A stretch of DNA of 64,000 nucleotides from a phage, in the sequence record PX104380.1; one strand, written 5' to 3'. Shown in pieces: positions 14,416 to 22,407 of the stretch (within the stretch, counting starts at the first letter, position 1; every line of letters begins with the position of its first letter). The position numbers were made by a program, and so were the translations under genes. The notes beneath the pieces were generated by a model. It was not told where the DNA came from. It ran no database searches and saw nothing but the letters and a program-made list of their open reading frames with translations.

Positions 14416-14901
14416 TCAAGTATTGTAAAACATTCGATGCAATCGCTTATATTGCCGAATCTTTTGGTCAGAAAAAGAAATTTGGGTTTCAAGCCATTCA
14501 ATATATTCTGCCGCAGCTTGCATCAGGTTACCTTCATAGCCATCGTTATTTTCTTGCGCAGCTAATTTAGCTAATGCGTATGAAATACGTTCACCTTGAA
14601 AATCGGCTTTAGGCTTCTGAACAACTTGATTAGTTCGCTCTACAACTTCTTCAATTTCGCCATTTTCAACGGATTCAGTATTCCATAAGCACCAATACGT
14701 AATTGGCTTATCATAGATATTAATAATCTTTCCGTCGGAAAGTTCAATTTCAATAATTCCAGTATCAGGCTCTATATCATCTTCACATTCTTTTGCAAGT
14801 TCACGAACTTTAAAGACAGTACCTGCGCTAAGTTCCGGCCAGTAATTACACAGCCCTGTATCAGCACGATTAATTCTAAACCACTTATCTACTGTAATCA
14901 T
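14416..14901 (-). CDS. pin: probable PinA (inhibitor of host Lon protease), 161 aa from second Met
   Basis: Position between gene 49 and nrdC and length as in T4; sequence not independently verified. Confidence 0.5.
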   Translation of the reverse strand: MITVDKWFRINRADTGLCNYWPELSAGTVFKVRELAKECEDDIEPDTGIIEIELSDGKIINIYDKPITYWCLWNTESVENGEIEEVVERTNQVVQKPKADFQGERISYALAKLAAQENNDGYEGNLMQAAAEYIEWLETQISFSDQKIRQYKRLHRMFYNT

Positions 14902-15023
14902 GTCCCATCTCCATATCAATTAAGTCATTTATCGTTGGTTCATTATATACTGTTTCTTCATCAGTGTAAACCGGTTCTTCCGGCTCTGGCTCTACAGTTT
15001 CCCATCTAGCCGCCCACCAAGGT

Positions 15024-15233
15024 TTAACCCCGAAGCTTATTAAGTTCTTCATCATCAATCCAGGATTCTAGTCCTGTTGGCAGGTCACATTCAATTTCCC
15101 AAAGAAGTTCTTCAATTTTCTGAAGACGATCTAGTTCTTCAGCAGGAATAGTAACCATTGACGGAGCTCTTGCTACATTAATATCGTAAATCATATTTAC
15201 CCCAGTTTGACCATACAATCGCCGTATTTCCAC
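15024..15233 (-). CDS. hypothetical protein (69 aa)
   Basis: Minus-strand ORF. Confidence 0.4.
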   Translation of the reverse strand: MEIRRLYGQTGVNMIYDINVARAPSMVTIPAEELDRLQKIEELLWEIECDLPTGLESWIDDEELNKLRG

Positions 15234-15918: not shown

Positions 15919-16308
15919 TTAATCCAAAATATTATTAGGCATTGGTTGAACACTCACAAGTTCTTTAAAGAACTCAGTAGAATCAGGCAATTTAACCATT
16001 TCCGGAGCATGCTTACTGAATTTATGTTTACATTGACGGCATTTATATTCAAGCTCTGGTTTACGCCAGTTAATCAATTGAACTTGTTCAGTACCGCATT
16101 CAGGGCAATTAGGAACATTTTTAGAAGCTCTTTCACGTCGTTCAACCATAACCATAATGGCATCCCAAGCAGGAGGTTTAAAGTCTAAATCGTCACAACC
16201 ATGAATCTTTCCACGCATTTCCAAATCGTCTTCTTCACCAGCCATAATAATTTTAATTAGACTAGAATTACTTGAAGCTGCAATATCTTCTAATAAACGC
16301 TTTTTCAT
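15919..16308 (-). CDS. hypothetical zinc-ribbon protein (129 aa)
   Basis: CPECG...CRQCKH two CxxC pairs. Confidence 0.5.
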
Positions 16309-17231
16309 TTCAGTACCTCAATAGCATCACGTAAACCATTTGCTTTGGCGGTTAAAGCCTTAAGAACTTTAGTATGCTCTTCAATTTGTTTTTCAACTTC
16401 AATCAAACGAGCATTGAGATATTCGCGTTCTTCTTTCATAGTATCATTTCCATGATTGGATTTTGGTGTAGGTTTAAATTCACTAGGGTCCTTTAACTTA
16501 ATAACAAATTTAGTTTCAAACAGTGAAAGACCATAATTCGTATTATCATCAAAGGATTTAACTACATCCATATTAGATAATAACTCATGCAAATTATAAG
16601 ACAAAGAACTAATAGTTTCATTGTGTTTATTAGCTTCGCGTGGTTTCATATACGGAAGATTTTTATATATCTCATGCGGAGCGCAAACGATAATTGACAA
16701 TTCAAATTGTCCATTCTGGGACGATGGAATGAATTTAGCCGTAACCCAGTCTTTTACATTCACATTAATAGTACGGTTATCACCATGACAAAACAGTCTA
16801 CGAGAATGCTTAAAAAGCATATTCACGTTATTATTGAATTCGTGTGAAAATTCACTAGCAAATTTTTCTTTACTATCTTTAGAAAACCATTCTTCTAAAT
16901 AAGTTCTTTTCACGTCATTAATAATATTAAATGTAACAACACTAGCATTTGATACATTAGTCTTAATGTAGCTTGGATACATAAATTTTTTAACATTATT
17001 AACAGCTATCACAGAAGATAGTAATCGGGAACGTTTGAACCACTCGAGCAAAGAACCAAGAGAATGTGAATACGCATTTTGTGTATCTTTACAAATATGG
17101 TTTTCCCATCCAATATAGTCTAAAAAATCACGAAGAATATTATTGATTACTGCTCTGTGTCCGATCTGATAATTACGATGTTTAGTAATAAGACTGTCAA
17201 AATAATCAATATAATGTTTACGAGTTTTCAT
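16305..17231 (-). CDS. hypothetical protein, member 1 of tandem paralog family with C-terminal coiled coil (308 aa)
   Basis: Shares MKTR start and a central F-x-x-x-R-L-x...G-D motif with the next three genes; C-terminal heptad-like helix. Confidence 0.6.
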   Translation of the reverse strand: MKTRKHYIDYFDSLITKHRNYQIGHRAVINNILRDFLDYIGWENHICKDTQNAYSHSLGSLLEWFKRSRLLSSVIAVNNVKKFMYPSYIKTNVSNASVVTFNIINDVKRTYLEEWFSKDSKEKFASEFSHEFNNNVNMLFKHSRRLFCHGDNRTINVNVKDWVTAKFIPSSQNGQFELSIIVCAPHEIYKNLPYMKPREANKHNETISSLSYNLHELLSNMDVVKSFDDNTNYGLSLFETKFVIKLKDPSEFKPTPKSNHGNDTMKEEREYLNARLIEVEKQIEEHTKVLKALTAKANGLRDAIEVLK

Positions 17232-17283
17232 GTTCTTCTCACTTGGTTAATGATTTATACTCCGAGCCATCCTTGGCTTTAAA

Positions 17284-18285
17284 TTACTTAATTAACTGTA
17301 AAGCCTGTTCTAAACGATCAAGACGATTAACAGATTCTTCCCAAATCCTTTTAGCCTGCTCATATTCTTTCTGCGCTTTATTAGAAATTTCTAGAACTTC
17401 TTTATAAGCTTTTTCTAATGCAATAACTTCTGGACGAATTTCTACCGGTTCAGGTGAATCATCAAGACATTCCATTAGTTCCTCAAGGGTAGTTTCTTCT
17501 TTAGGAGTATTCACAATTTCATCACATTTTTGTTGGTAAATTTCTTTACTAGTAGGTGAATAAGTACATTTCACTTCACGAAGACTAACTACAATTTTAT
17601 ATCCTTCCCAACCGCATATATTCTTAAAAGGATATGTATGAATATTTTCTACCGTTTCCATACAAAGTAATGCAGTCTCTAACTGATGAGTTGTATCACT
17701 AGCAATTGAGAAAAATTTATTAATATTCTTTTGATTAGCTTCTGGTGTAAAAAATTCATAATTCACAAAAATAGCTGCTTTATTTTTATCAAGTTCATAT
17801 TCTTTTATGATAATCATATCAGAAGCCAAAGGATGAATTTGACGATAATCGCCATAACATAATTTAGAAGCTGATTTTAGAATTTGCTTCTTGAAAAGTC
17901 TAAAATTACTAATCCAACGACGAGTAAAAATATTCTCAGGGTCTTCTTTATTATTAAGATGATAAGAATTAACATCACCGAACCAACTGTATCCTACTAC
18001 ATCTTTGGTTCGTTTAATTTCTTTCCCAAAATTACTAAGAATATCTTGATTAACTAAATATGAAAGAAGACGAGACCCTTTAAAGGTTTCCTTAATATCA
18101 TCTTTATCTACACGACTAGAAATTTTATGAACTTCATGAATAAATTTGCTGGAAGAAACAATACTTGCATCAGTATTGTTGAGCCACTGATTGATAATAG
18201 AAAGAACACTATTCTGACTAGACATAGGTTTAACTTTATCATCAATAACACTATTGAATGATTTGATATATTCGTTACGAGTCAT
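17284..18285 (-). CDS. hypothetical protein, paralog family member 2 (333 aa from SD-supported start MTRNEY)
   Basis: Early promoter at 18314-18343 places the transcription start downstream of the listed first ATG; GAGGAG SD before ATG at 18285. Confidence 0.6.
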   Translation of the reverse strand: MTRNEYIKSFNSVIDDKVKPMSSQNSVLSIINQWLNNTDASIVSSSKFIHEVHKISSRVDKDDIKETFKGSRLLSYLVNQDILSNFGKEIKRTKDVVGYSWFGDVNSYHLNNKEDPENIFTRRWISNFRLFKKQILKSASKLCYGDYRQIHPLASDMIIIKEYELDKNKAAIFVNYEFFTPEANQKNINKFFSIASDTTHQLETALLCMETVENIHTYPFKNICGWEGYKIVVSLREVKCTYSPTSKEIYQQKCDEIVNTPKEETTLEELMECLDDSPEPVEIRPEVIALEKAYKEVLEISNKAQKEYEQAKRIWEESVNRLDRLEQALQLIK

Positions 18286-18313
18286 ATTAATCTCCTCAGT
18301 AGAAAGTAAGAAC

Positions 18314-18343
18314 ATTATACCACATCCTTGTGGCAAAGTAAAC
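18314..18343 (-). promoter_or_regulatory. T4 early-type promoter (GTTTAC -35, 18 nt spacer, TGGTATAAT extended -10)
   Basis: Minus-strand reading GTTTACTTTGCCACAAGGATGTGGTATAAT. Confidence 0.6.
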
Positions 18344-19347
18344 TAGTTCAGTGCATTTAGTGCGTTGTTCAATTTAGAACGTTGCTTCGTGAGATTTTTT
18401 ACTTTTTCTTGAGCTTTTTCTAGCATCTTTTCAGCTTCTAACACTTCATTAGTTGCTTTAACGAGTTCATCATCTACTGCCTTGATAGACTTCTCAATCG
18501 CATCCGCGTGCCATTTTTCAACAGGTTTAAGACTCGGATTTTCAACAGGAAGAAAATTCACTTTATTGAATTTCCATGCATCATTATTACCTGAACTATA
18601 CATCCAAAATTTAGGATCGTTTGATGAGTAATTAGTTTGGTGTTCAGGTTTTTTCTCTTGTATAACTTCGTCCTTTCTCAAAAAATCGTATTTAAATGAA
18701 ACGATCATATCAAGTTCATACGTTGTTGTGTCTAATTTAAATCGTTCAAAACGAGGTAAAATCTTAGATTGAACAGCAGCAACAACATCCATATACTTAA
18801 ATGCTTCTGTCAGCTGTGATTTAAGACATTCACAAATTGAAAGAGAATTTTTTGTATTAGGTTTAAAGCTAATTCGTGCAGTTCTATTATTTTCTTTTAA
18901 TGGTCTTACTTCCATCTGAAGAGTATAACCATCAAATTTCAGGTTCTTTAAGTTAATGTCAGAACCTTTTAATCGACTAGCCGTCGACAAAATTTGCTTT
19001 AATTGTTTACGGAATAGAGCAATAAATCTCCATTCAATACGATAATGATTTGGATTGAAAAATCCAGATGATAAATCGACCTTACTTTGACCAACGCCTT
19101 GAACAAATAAAGGATTTTTATAATCAATAGTTTTACAGAAATCGGTGAGCTGCTCACGAGCAGTCATTTGTGTAATATACCCTGCTTCATTAAAATTACG
19201 CACCCATTCACTGCTATTCATATATTTAAAGTGAATGGAACTATTAACTTTATCAGGGTCTAAATTATTTTGGCACAAAAATGTCATAACATCACGAGTA
19301 TAGCTGGCATTACGAACCATATCTTCAATTTGAGAACGAGTTTTCAT
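18343..19347 (-). CDS. hypothetical protein, paralog family member 3 (334 aa)
   Basis: MKTR start; FRKQLKQILSTASRL motif; C-terminal coiled coil. Confidence 0.6.
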   Translation of the reverse strand: MKTRSQIEDMVRNASYTRDVMTFLCQNNLDPDKVNSSIHFKYMNSSEWVRNFNEAGYITQMTAREQLTDFCKTIDYKNPLFVQGVGQSKVDLSSGFFNPNHYRIEWRFIALFRKQLKQILSTASRLKGSDINLKNLKFDGYTLQMEVRPLKENNRTARISFKPNTKNSLSICECLKSQLTEAFKYMDVVAAVQSKILPRFERFKLDTTTYELDMIVSFKYDFLRKDEVIQEKKPEHQTNYSSNDPKFWMYSSGNNDAWKFNKVNFLPVENPSLKPVEKWHADAIEKSIKAVDDELVKATNEVLEAEKMLEKAQEKVKNLTKQRSKLNNALNALN

Positions 19348-19355
19348 GGTGTTCC

Positions 19356-20258
19356 TTAAGATTTAAGTAAATCAACAATTTTAATTAATTTTTCACGTTC
19401 AGATTTAGCTTTACTACTCAATCCGGATAGTCTAAAGATTTCATCGTCATACTGTTGAATAGAAATATTTAGCTCTTCAATTTGCTTATTAAAATAATCA
19501 ATTTGCTCAGAATGTTTTTCGTTACTGCGAACTGGTACAGGTTTTGTAGGCAATTTAGTTAAACTGGATTCATCCGGGCGATAAATTAAAATACAACTTG
19601 AACCAATCGGGCATTTTGCACCAGATGAATATTCTAATGTTCCGGCTTCTTTTAAAACTTCAAAAGCTAAACAGAGATGATGCCCCATATTAACATAATC
19701 TGTAGAGCGAGCTCTGACGTAATAATCATCGCCGCGAATACTAAATTTAAAGCATTTAAGGTCTTCTGTATTATTGGTCTTAAAAATCATTTGTTTATCT
19801 AGACCTTTAGCTAATCGAGCGCCTAATGCTAATAATCGTCGTTGATTTTCCCACAAATCTGCGATCATTTGGTCAAATGATAATTTCGGCATTAGTCGAC
19901 CATAAAGGTCATATCCTTTATTATAATTACGAAGGATTTCACTCGCGTTAATACGAGACAATGCTCCAATTTTATTAAGGGCTTTCATAATGCGATTAGA
20001 TAAACCCATTCCAGACCCGTTTGTTCGCTGCAAATGTTTTTCTAATCCAAATCCAATATCAACTTTAAACTTATCTAAAATTTCTGCATGAACATCTCTG
20101 TCAATAACATTCAAATCCAAAGTTGGGTTAAATCTATGAAAAAATTTATCTGGCTCTCCACGACGAAGTACAGTCCATTCATTCATTTTTTTATTAACTA
20201 AAGATTTAATTACTGTATTGACATTATTAATTACTACTGACATATTTTTCTCACTCAA
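19356..20258 (-). CDS. hypothetical protein, paralog family member 4 (300 aa)
   Basis: LWENQRRLLALGARL motif; C-terminal coiled coil. Confidence 0.6.
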   Translation of the reverse strand: MSEKNMSVVINNVNTVIKSLVNKKMNEWTVLRRGEPDKFFHRFNPTLDLNVIDRDVHAEILDKFKVDIGFGLEKHLQRTNGSGMGLSNRIMKALNKIGALSRINASEILRNYNKGYDLYGRLMPKLSFDQMIADLWENQRRLLALGARLAKGLDKQMIFKTNNTEDLKCFKFSIRGDDYYVRARSTDYVNMGHHLCLAFEVLKEAGTLEYSSGAKCPIGSSCILIYRPDESSLTKLPTKPVPVRSNEKHSEQIDYFNKQIEELNISIQQYDDEIFRLSGLSSKAKSEREKLIKIVDLLKS

Positions 20259-20688: not shown

Positions 20689-20720
20689 ATTATACCATCC
20701 TTGGTATAAAGCGGTTATGC
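20689..20720 (-). promoter_or_regulatory. possible MotA-dependent middle promoter (GCTTTA box 12 nt upstream of TATAAT)
   Basis: Minus-strand CGCTTTATACCAAGGATGGTATAAT. Confidence 0.35.
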
Positions 20721-21242
20721 GAGTACCGTCTTTAACCGTTCTTCAAACTTCCGAAGAGTATTCTGGCGTTCAGCTCTTTGCTTTTTGTAAGTTTCAATAC
20801 GCTCTGAAATGAGAGTGTATCGTTCATTTACTGATTCTTTCATAAAATCAGGAATTTCACGAGAAGCTTTAATCTCATCAAATTTATCAATAACAGCTTG
20901 CTCTTCAGCAATTAAGTTATCATACATCAAAATATCTTTCTTGATGAACTCAATATCTTCTTGAGTTACACGAGATAACTTAGATGCTTTATCCTTTTTG
21001 TACTGTTCGTTAGTATCACGAGACCAGTGTAATGTACGATTTTTATTCGTATTTTTGTAAATTTCTACGATACCAATCTCATCAATAATAACGATCCAAT
21101 TCCAACGGGATTTGTAAATTTGTCCTCCATCAACTGTGATTTCACCTCCGATTGAGATGTCATTAAAGAACTTGCTTTGTGCTTCAGATTTAAATTTACC
21201 ATCGTTGTAATTTACCAAGTTGAAAATATCTTTAGCGTTCAT
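20715..21242 (-). CDS. hypothetical protein (175 aa), C-terminal coiled coil
   Basis: Minus-strand ORF with SD GAGGAA; promoter immediately upstream. Confidence 0.55.
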   Translation of the reverse strand: MNAKDIFNLVNYNDGKFKSEAQSKFFNDISIGGEITVDGGQIYKSRWNWIVIIDEIGIVEIYKNTNKNRTLHWSRDTNEQYKKDKASKLSRVTQEDIEFIKKDILMYDNLIAEEQAVIDKFDEIKASREIPDFMKESVNERYTLISERIETYKKQRAERQNTLRKFEERLKTVLA

Positions 21243-21687: not shown

Positions 21688-22407
21688 TTAGGATTCTTCT
21701 AAATGTCTTTTCTGAAAAGTTGATACCATACTACGATACGGTTCATTTGGATACCCGTGTTTTATAGCTTCCTTTGTAAATTTTCTCCATCCATATTTAG
21801 TTTCTTTCCAAAGCTCGAATAATTCATCTTCATACTGCCATATAGTTAAATGAGAACGCTTTGCAGCTTTAATTCCATTAATATGCTTTTCTTTTACTAC
21901 AGGATTGCTTAGTTTCTTTTTAATAATATTACTAACTTTTCTAACAAAAACTGGGTCCTTATATCGTTGCGAAGTTTTTATTGAAGTGTTTAATTTAGCT
22001 TCCGGTGTGGATGTGACCTCTTTCATCTTTTTCTTCATATGCTGTATATGATTAGGATTTTTCCATAAATTTATAGAATGCTTTTTGCATTTTATCCTAG
22101 TTTCATCTGCAACCTTTCCTCCTTCACCTCCGTATGACAGGTTAACACAGTTTTTTCCATATTTCAATTTACCTGCCATGATATATAATATTTCAGCTTG
22201 TACCATTTTATCATAATTATCAAAAACTTCTAAAACCGTTTTTGATAATATGTGGTCATTTGACACTTTTACACGTTCTATATAATTTCCACTACCAACA
22301 TACGAATCATTGATGTTATTAGTTATATGTCGACCATAATAGTATTTCTTAATACCTGTCTTTAAATTTAATATTTCAGTTTTATAGATAGTAAAATATT
22401 TTTTCAT
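21688..22407 (-). mobile_element. divergent GIY-YIG-like putative endonuclease (239 aa)
   Basis: IYKTE...KYYYGRHITNNINDSYVGSG parallels KEYIGAHSTDNINDGYMGSG of the ORF at 11264-12094; basic C-terminal half. Confidence 0.4.

Follow-up and report, generated by a model that had tools for sequence, protein, structure and literature searches.

Four tandem genes of a T4-like coliphage, nrdC.3 to nrdC.6, form an ancient and diverged superfamily of candidate inhibitors of host immunity

Within a 64,000-nucleotide stretch of phage DNA (sequence record PX104380.1; hereafter the window), which belongs to a Tequatrovirus, a T2/T4-like coliphage, four consecutive open reading frames (ORFs), here called genes A to D, are the counterparts of nrdC.3, nrdC.4, nrdC.5 and nrdC.6 of phage T4. 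As judged from sequence profiles, the four proteins are ancient, strongly diverged paralogs of one superfamily, of which gene B is the hub and gene D the most divergent member, and the NrdC.3-6 family is most likely one of inhibitors that act on host anti-phage immune proteins. The literature searched appears to hold no description of this family relationship; the function of the T4 ortholog of gene C was already known. The four consecutive genes described in an initial reading of the sequence alone are present on the minus strand and span 16305-20243 from their preferred starts:

16305-17231, minus strand: gene A, 308 amino acids (aa), ortholog of T4 nrdC.3 (92% aa identity to T4 NrdC.3)
17284-18285, minus strand: gene B, 333 aa from its ATG, ortholog of T4 nrdC.4 (about 92% identity), with an AlphaFold2 model at a predicted local distance difference test (pLDDT) score of 85
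18343-19347, minus strand: gene C, 334 aa, syntenic ortholog of T4 nrdC.5 (91.5% identity)
19356-20243, minus strand: gene D, 295 aa from its ATG, ortholog of T4/RB14 nrdC.6 (98% identity to RB14 NrdC.6)

More than 500 Tequatrovirus genomes match across the whole four-gene stretch, the closest at the nucleotide level being vB_EcoM_KAW1E185 (96.6% identity; T2, 95.2%). The ATG of gene B is preceded by a GAGGAG ribosome-binding site, which disfavours an alternative 350-aa product from a TTG start, and an extended -10 promoter-like site lies immediately upstream of the gene. A GAG ribosome-binding site likewise precedes the ATG of gene D, the 300-aa version of which would begin at a TTG at 20258. 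The MKTR start noted earlier for two of the genes belongs to A and C; B begins MTR.

Direct comparison of the four proteins gave faint signals, with raw pairwise blastp expectation values (E) of 0.024 for A-B and 0.014 for B-C and no significant score for any pair with D. Because these values were marginal, we compared family profiles, which drew on homologs found in databases and on Gapriver-, Dhaka-, Mosig-, Marfa-, Jiaoda- and Karamvirus loci. In hhalign, the A/B profile aligned with the C profile at 96.2% probability (E 2.6e-9, 256 colinear columns) and with the D profile at 88.3% (E 2.9e-6 in local mode; 95% in global mode), the supported alignments covering 119-256 colinear columns. Profiles stripped of the C-terminal tails still aligned (92.9% for A/B with C, 57% for A/B with D), and reversed-profile controls reached no more than 0.5% probability (P ≥0.11). 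Between A and B the alignment spans the full length at 20-23% identity (A against the B family in hhalign: 96%, E 2.3e-9), and plain blastp joins the two through orthologs of other genera, down to 5.6e-10. An exhaustive HMMER search of 1.84 billion representative proteins with the A/B profile recovered an intermediate, P0265 (315 aa, from a Klebsiella-phage Marfavirus), which aligns with the A/B profile at 97% (E 6e-11) and with the C profile at 95% (E 6e-8). Only 11 representatives were found at E ≤0.001 in this search, with no cellular relatives among the 1.84 billion proteins, and the family is thus practically restricted to T4-like phages.

The connection of gene D is, at the level of profiles, the weakest of the three family links. 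The direct profile comparison of C with D was not significant, the connection running through A/B alone, and D went undetected with the first, smaller hhalign profiles, its link emerging once Karamvirus and Mosigvirus members had been added. In the databases the array proteins are held as three separate families by both Pfam and PHROGs: A and B share PHROG 1435 and Pfam PF26897, and D falls in PF26899. Gene C matched the Pfam DUF7235 model (PF23882) at 393.6 bits (E 8.7e-118, cut-off 30), whereas A, B and D gave no match to this hidden Markov model, making C the sole DUF7235 member of the array. Sequence searches of Pfam, NCBIfam, PADLOC and PDB returned no match for the four proteins beyond DUF7235 in C. 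The profile alignments provide statistically supported homology across PF26897, PF23882 and PF26899. A tandem, diversified family with a shared helical tail, as the sequence-only reading had proposed, is borne out by the A/B-C and A/B-D probabilities, and its comparison with shuffled controls comes out in favour of real similarity, with reversed profiles at ≤0.5% and the tails scoring above their shuffles.

The four genes might instead be unrelated, their motifs and tails reflecting chance or compositional resemblance among AT-rich coiled-coil genes. Marginal or non-significant pairwise blastp scores would fit such an origin, as would the lack of significance between C and D even by profiles and the division into three Pfam/PHROG families. 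However, the profile probabilities of 88-96% persist without the tail, reversed controls are flat, a neighbour that also has a heptad tail (NrdC.8) scores ≤0.7%, P0265 bridges two of the families and the structure models of B and D share one topology. Chance resemblance is largely refuted by these results and we consider it very improbable. NrdC.8 itself was examined as a fifth member because of its heptad tail and was rejected on its scores against all three profiles. Also set aside as unrelated were neighbours of 257-262 aa in Marfa, JD18 and PG7 and several ORFs of Lazarus and Aes508; Lazarus gp117 has a tail and gave weak scores only.

AlphaFold2 models of B and D (pLDDT 78.5 for D) place the secondary-structure elements in the same order, namely an N-terminal helical bundle, a helix/helix/short-helix unit, two strands, a long helix, two further strands, a low-confidence linker and a terminal helix. 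The central motif singled out in the earlier reading, which had quoted one string from each protein, sits in the modelled helix-helix-short-helix unit (B 119-148, D 123-150); all four strings are present, and hhalign puts them into the same columns:

16773-16817, minus strand: central motif of A, aa 139-153
17860-17904, minus strand: central helical motif of B, FRLFKKQILKSASKL, aa 128-142
18970-19014, minus strand: central motif of C, aa 112-126
19812-19856, minus strand: central motif of D, aa 130-144

An upstream helix is also aligned by hhalign (B, FKGSRLLSYLVNQDILSNF; D, IGALSRINASEILRNY), and in the B-C alignment a downstream ALxxM[DE]xV helix is in register. Compared with viral models by Foldseek, the B model matched NrdC.6 of JS10 (E 2.5e-5), together with uncharacterised proteins of 300-370 aa encoded by T4-like phages of Acinetobacter, Klebsiella, Pectobacterium, Erwinia, Serratia, Yersinia and Enterobacter; two of these proteins carry adjacent accessions in Acj61. 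Global template modelling scores in the Foldseek comparisons (B and D being the proteins modelled) were low, at 0.36-0.41, as expected because flexible linkers join the domains. Within each family the central motif and the tail are most conserved, and lineages differ mostly in the N-terminal bundle and the beta-rich domain, in agreement with the earlier view that the N-terminal domains have diverged.

Helical, heptad-like tails had been described at the C-terminus of each protein, and we recovered them in all four. The best heptad score, a home-made heuristic compared with shuffled sequences, lay at the extreme C-terminus in every case, above the 99th percentile of shuffles (z 2.8-5.5), and AlphaFold2 predicts terminal helices in B and D:

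16308-16448, minus strand: tail of A, aa 262-308, heptad z 4.3, ending ..LRDAIEVLK
17287-17433, minus strand: tail of B, aa 285-333, heptad segment 303-333, ending ..LEQALQLIK
18346-18516, minus strand: tail of C, aa 278-334, heptad z 5.5, ending ..LNNALNALN
19359-19520, minus strand: tail of D, aa 242-295, modelled as helix-break-helix, heptad segment 242-273, ending ..LIKIVDLLKS

In the B model the tail is a single 48-residue helix (285-332) that follows a low-confidence linker (245-284), and in the D model it comprises helices 242-271 and 277-294. The tail of C alone aligned with that of A/B at 76% probability in hhalign. Chain ends of the form L/Y-x-x-A/I-L/I-x-L/A/V-L-K are common to the three Pfam families, with a heptad helix closing on L-x-x-[A/I]-[L/I]-x-x-L-K found at a frequency of 56-95% in each family. 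For D, the tail is the best-conserved part of the NrdC.6 family (63-80% identity vs 44% overall).

We assessed the likely function of the array through the T4 ortholog of gene C. A T4 clone with compensatory deletions was unable to infect Escherichia coli ECOR17, deletion of dsr1 in ECOR17 restored infection, and cloned dsr1 shielded MG1655 from the T4 deletion clone; nrdC.5 alone, expressed from a plasmid, allowed the T4 deletion mutant to plate again on cells carrying Dsr1 (Srikant et al., eLife 2022, PMC9391042). Dsr1 combines a SIR2 effector that depletes nicotinamide adenine dinucleotide (NAD+) with a tetratricopeptide repeat (TPR) sensor, and its reported triggers are major capsid proteins (PMC12803255). 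Gene C is close to and syntenic with T4 nrdC.5, from which we infer the same anti-Dsr1 activity; its product is thus predicted to neutralise Dsr1-mediated defence. The earlier statement that no function was known for this family consequently falls, as T4 nrdC.5 overcomes Dsr1. Its functional interpretation, host-factor binding or inhibitor decoys with a variable targeting domain, fares better in part: the inhibitor idea fits the action of T4 nrdC.5 against Dsr1 (PMC9391042), which has been shown for one member only. Our search of the literature on nrdC.3 to nrdC.8 and DUF7235 returned no functional study besides that of Srikant et al. (2022), and no reported function for nrdC.3, nrdC.4 or nrdC.6. 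Given the anti-Dsr1 activity of NrdC.5 in T4 and the paralogy of the four proteins, these three genes are good candidates for further immune inhibitors.

T4 NrdC.5 and the product of gene C are of the same length class and occupy the same place between nrdC.4 and nrdC.6. The products of A, B and D, in contrast, are remote homologs that probably share the architecture of T4 NrdC.5 and are at most 20% identical to it in the variable domains, so the same target cannot be assumed for them.

Copy number varies across related phages, as the sequence-only reading had suggested might be looked for, with one, three or four copies depending on the genus. Four copies are found in Tequatrovirus. Mosig-, Dhaka- and Gaprivervirus carry three, and their arrangement (6-like, 5-like, 3/4-like) is conserved. 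One recognisable copy lies beside nrdC.2 in Marfavirus (intermediate type), Jiaodavirus (A/B type) and Karamvirus (NrdC.6 type). Gene A is similar to the Mosigvirus copy (55-57%) and gene B to the Dhaka-/Gaprivervirus copy (45-51%).

Allelic variation is pronounced in nrdC.3, which is bimodal in Tequatrovirus (identity exceeds 90% in about 140 records and is 60-80% in another 298). When the alleles are compared, aa 1-75 and 271-308 are 87-100% identical, and a central cassette, aa 76-255, is 23-57% identical. In this central part the RB14-type allele shares 83-93% identity with the Mosigvirus gene (window 16305-17231 compared with L008:5001-5930 of RB14 and L007:5998-6948 of Mosigvirus OLB35), which indicates cassette exchange between genera. 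Ratios of nonsynonymous to synonymous substitution rates (dN/dS), calculated with our own Nei-Gojobori code for three genomes only, were 0.16-0.33 for nrdC.3, nrdC.4 and nrdC.5, 0.09 for nrdC.6 and 0-0.15 for nrdC, nrdC.1, nrdC.8, nrdC.9, gp49 and pin. These values imply that the genes are real and constrained, and that nrdC.3, nrdC.4 and nrdC.5 evolve faster than their neighbours.

Several disrupted or rearranged versions of the array were observed. Laboratory T4 nrdC.6 (NC_000866, L002:3603-4520) carries a 1-nucleotide deletion relative to RB14 and to window 19356-20243; the frameshift stops NrdC.6 at 275 aa with loss of the tail, which is intact in another frame. In T2 (LC348380; L001: 3982-4921 and 6069-6902), the annotation breaks nrdC.4 and nrdC.6 each into two short coding sequences, suggesting frameshifts or sequencing errors, and fragments like these were the top matches of the B model in BFVD. 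One database protein, P0057 (299 aa; its cluster was seen on a 167-kb contig), is a fusion in which the middle of NrdC.5 is followed, after the junction ..KFNKVN|MLFKH.., by the C-terminal half of an RB14-type NrdC.3; this implies that paralogs recombined at a short motif common to both, deleting nrdC.4. A second database protein, the NrdC.3-like P0257 (225 aa), is probably an artefact of the data: its many Ser/Pro/His/Arg to Phe/Leu/Tyr/Cys changes look like the result of translating reads with C-to-T damage or conversion.

Taken with the activity of NrdC.5, these patterns are best explained by ancient nrdC.3-6 paralogs of common architecture that form an immune-inhibitor family diversified by duplication and cassette exchange, a reading that we favour with moderate confidence. 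The genes are non-essential early genes of the nrdC-mobD accessory region, each predicted to encode an N-terminal helical bundle, a conserved helix pair, a beta-beta-alpha-beta-beta domain, a flexible linker and a predicted amphipathic terminal helix of 45-55 residues that closes on the end motif given above. Their products would presumably be made early and act as stoichiometric inhibitors. More tentatively, the variable globular domains may bind host immune proteins, with A, B and D each perhaps neutralising its own defence protein, or its own variant of a shared one, and the conserved tail might self-associate for avidity, hold the target in an inactive assembly or provide common docking. 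Duplication and exchange of the central cassette between phage lineages would then retarget and diversify the family.

Several points weigh against this explanation. Experimental function is confined to nrdC.5 and to plating rescue; dN/dS is below 1 throughout the three genomes, with no whole-gene signal of positive selection; and nrdC.6 is as constrained as its neighbours. The homology of D, moreover, draws on a single Foldseek match, matching topology and an hhalign probability of 88% that drops to 57% once the tail is removed, and the proposed oligomerisation of the tail is predicted from the home-made heptad score and models of monomers only.

An alternative is that the paralogs serve host takeover, binding housekeeping proteins or nucleic acid and redirecting early metabolism or transcription, with the anti-Dsr1 effect an indirect by-product. 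Effects on host physiology are common among the early accessory genes of T4, the array lies in an early region with sigma-70-like promoters, and purifying selection prevails overall, nrdC.6 being highly conserved. However, nrdC.5 alone is enough to restore plating specifically on Dsr1-bearing cells, and laboratory strains and deletion mutants have lost the genes or carry frameshifts in them with no K-12 phenotype. Strong variation in copy number and alleles between close relatives is also typical of arms-race genes, and host takeover therefore appears unlikely.

The predicted beta-beta-alpha-beta-beta domain suggests another possibility, mimicry of a structural protein, whereby the domain copies the tail-terminator fold and an early decoy occupies a TPR-type sensor (Dsr1, Avs-like) before late structural proteins appear, the tail keeping the decoy in a form unable to trigger the receptor. 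A tail terminator was also matched weakly in BFVD, and the resemblance in fold is moderate; the TPR sensor of Dsr1 is homologous to that of Avs7, and Avs15 senses tail terminators via a TPR-like sensor (PMC12803255). Even so, the A/B profile showed no sequence similarity to the gp15 tail terminator of the window (hhalign 0.1%), the D model returned no tail terminators, and Dsr1 is reported to be triggered by the major capsid protein rather than a tail terminator, leaving mimicry decidedly unlikely in our estimate. Tail terminators such as those of lambda (gpU), T5 (p142), Mu and SPP1 (gp17-like) differ further in that the nrdC proteins add a helical bundle and a tail, and in that they are encoded in the tail module rather than, like nrdC.3-6, in the early nrdC-mobD accessory region. 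The same fold resemblance, together with the sensing of tail terminators by Avs15, suggests a more specific idea, to which we give a slim chance: NrdC.3-6 might be a modular, duplicating "sensor-plug" family, in which a linker-tethered tail-terminator-like domain and an oligomerising helix let each member plug a different TPR sensor (Dsr1 or Avs-type signal transduction ATPases with numerous domains).

In many GenBank phage records, nrdC.3 to nrdC.7 carry the product name "thioredoxin", which would make the array proteins thioredoxin or ribonucleotide-reductase accessory proteins. Searches of Pfam and NCBIfam gave no thioredoxin or glutaredoxin match, no solved structure was matched by sequence, and the B and D models, which do not resemble thioredoxin, consist of a helical bundle, an alpha/beta domain and a long helix. 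As no thioredoxin domain was found, the label looks like a carry-over of the positional names nrdC.N, and the likelihood of such a function is next to nil. The MKTR N-termini also raised the idea of a capsid-targeting (internal protein) signal, which we rejected after inspecting them; nrdC.5 is, in addition, active when produced in the host cytoplasm.

The reading of NrdC.3-6 as inhibitors of host immune proteins would make testable counter-defence candidates of three hypothetical proteins that are encoded by more than 500 sequenced coliphages, some of them considered for therapy. It also supplies a domain map (variable bundle, beta domain, conserved tail) for working out how NrdC.5 blocks Dsr1, and a further example of counter-defence diversifying through tandem duplication and cassette exchange. 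For phage biology, T4 and its relatives are the reference system, yet most nrdC-mobD genes are without known function. By function alone, the array can be likened to DSAD1 of SPbeta (PMC10973363, PMC11087589), likewise a phage blocker of a SIR2-type NAD+-depleting defence; it differs in being a Bacillus siphophage protein directed against DSR2, which responds to the tail tube protein.

ORFs surrounding the array include endonuclease VII, Pin and NrdC, and the order of nrdC, nrdC.1, nrdC.2, nrdC.3, nrdC.4, nrdC.5, nrdC.6, nrdC.7 and nrdC.8 in the window is identical to that in T4, T2 and RB14. The Lon inhibitor gene pin and genes 49.1-49.3 adjoin the array (window 14416-15233 region, and L002 and L008 for T4 and RB14), and a 2026 report describes Gp49.2 of T6 as inhibiting the defence nuclease OLD (PMC13096335). 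With both Pin and Gp49.2 being inhibitors, the whole gp49-mobD stretch behaves as a counter-defence region. Both are non-essential, small to medium proteins of the same early accessory region, encoded within a few kilobases, but their sequences are unrelated to the array proteins, and they are neither tandem paralogs nor equipped with a coiled-coil tail. In Aeromonas phage Aes508, a nicotinamide phosphoribosyltransferase gene (L013:12205-13677) lies between nrdC.11 and gp49, in the interval that holds the nrdC.3-6 array in T-even phages, and the two could both bear on NAD+-depleting defences.

Other features close to the array were also recorded. The start of an nrdC.2-like ORF (window 15919-16308, minus strand) overlaps the stop of gene A by 4 nucleotides; its 129-aa product, longer than T4 NrdC.2 (104 aa), has weak zinc-ribbon matches (Zn_ribbon_8, E 6.6e-6, under the Pfam cut-off). 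On the other side, nrdC.8 (window 20715-21242, minus strand) encodes 175 aa with a significant heptad helix at its end (aa 143-175). Farther along, a 239-aa ORF (window 21688-22407, minus strand) lies between nrdC.9 and a downstream 378-aa ORF, at a position where RB14 has an annotated Seg-like homing endonuclease and T4 has none.

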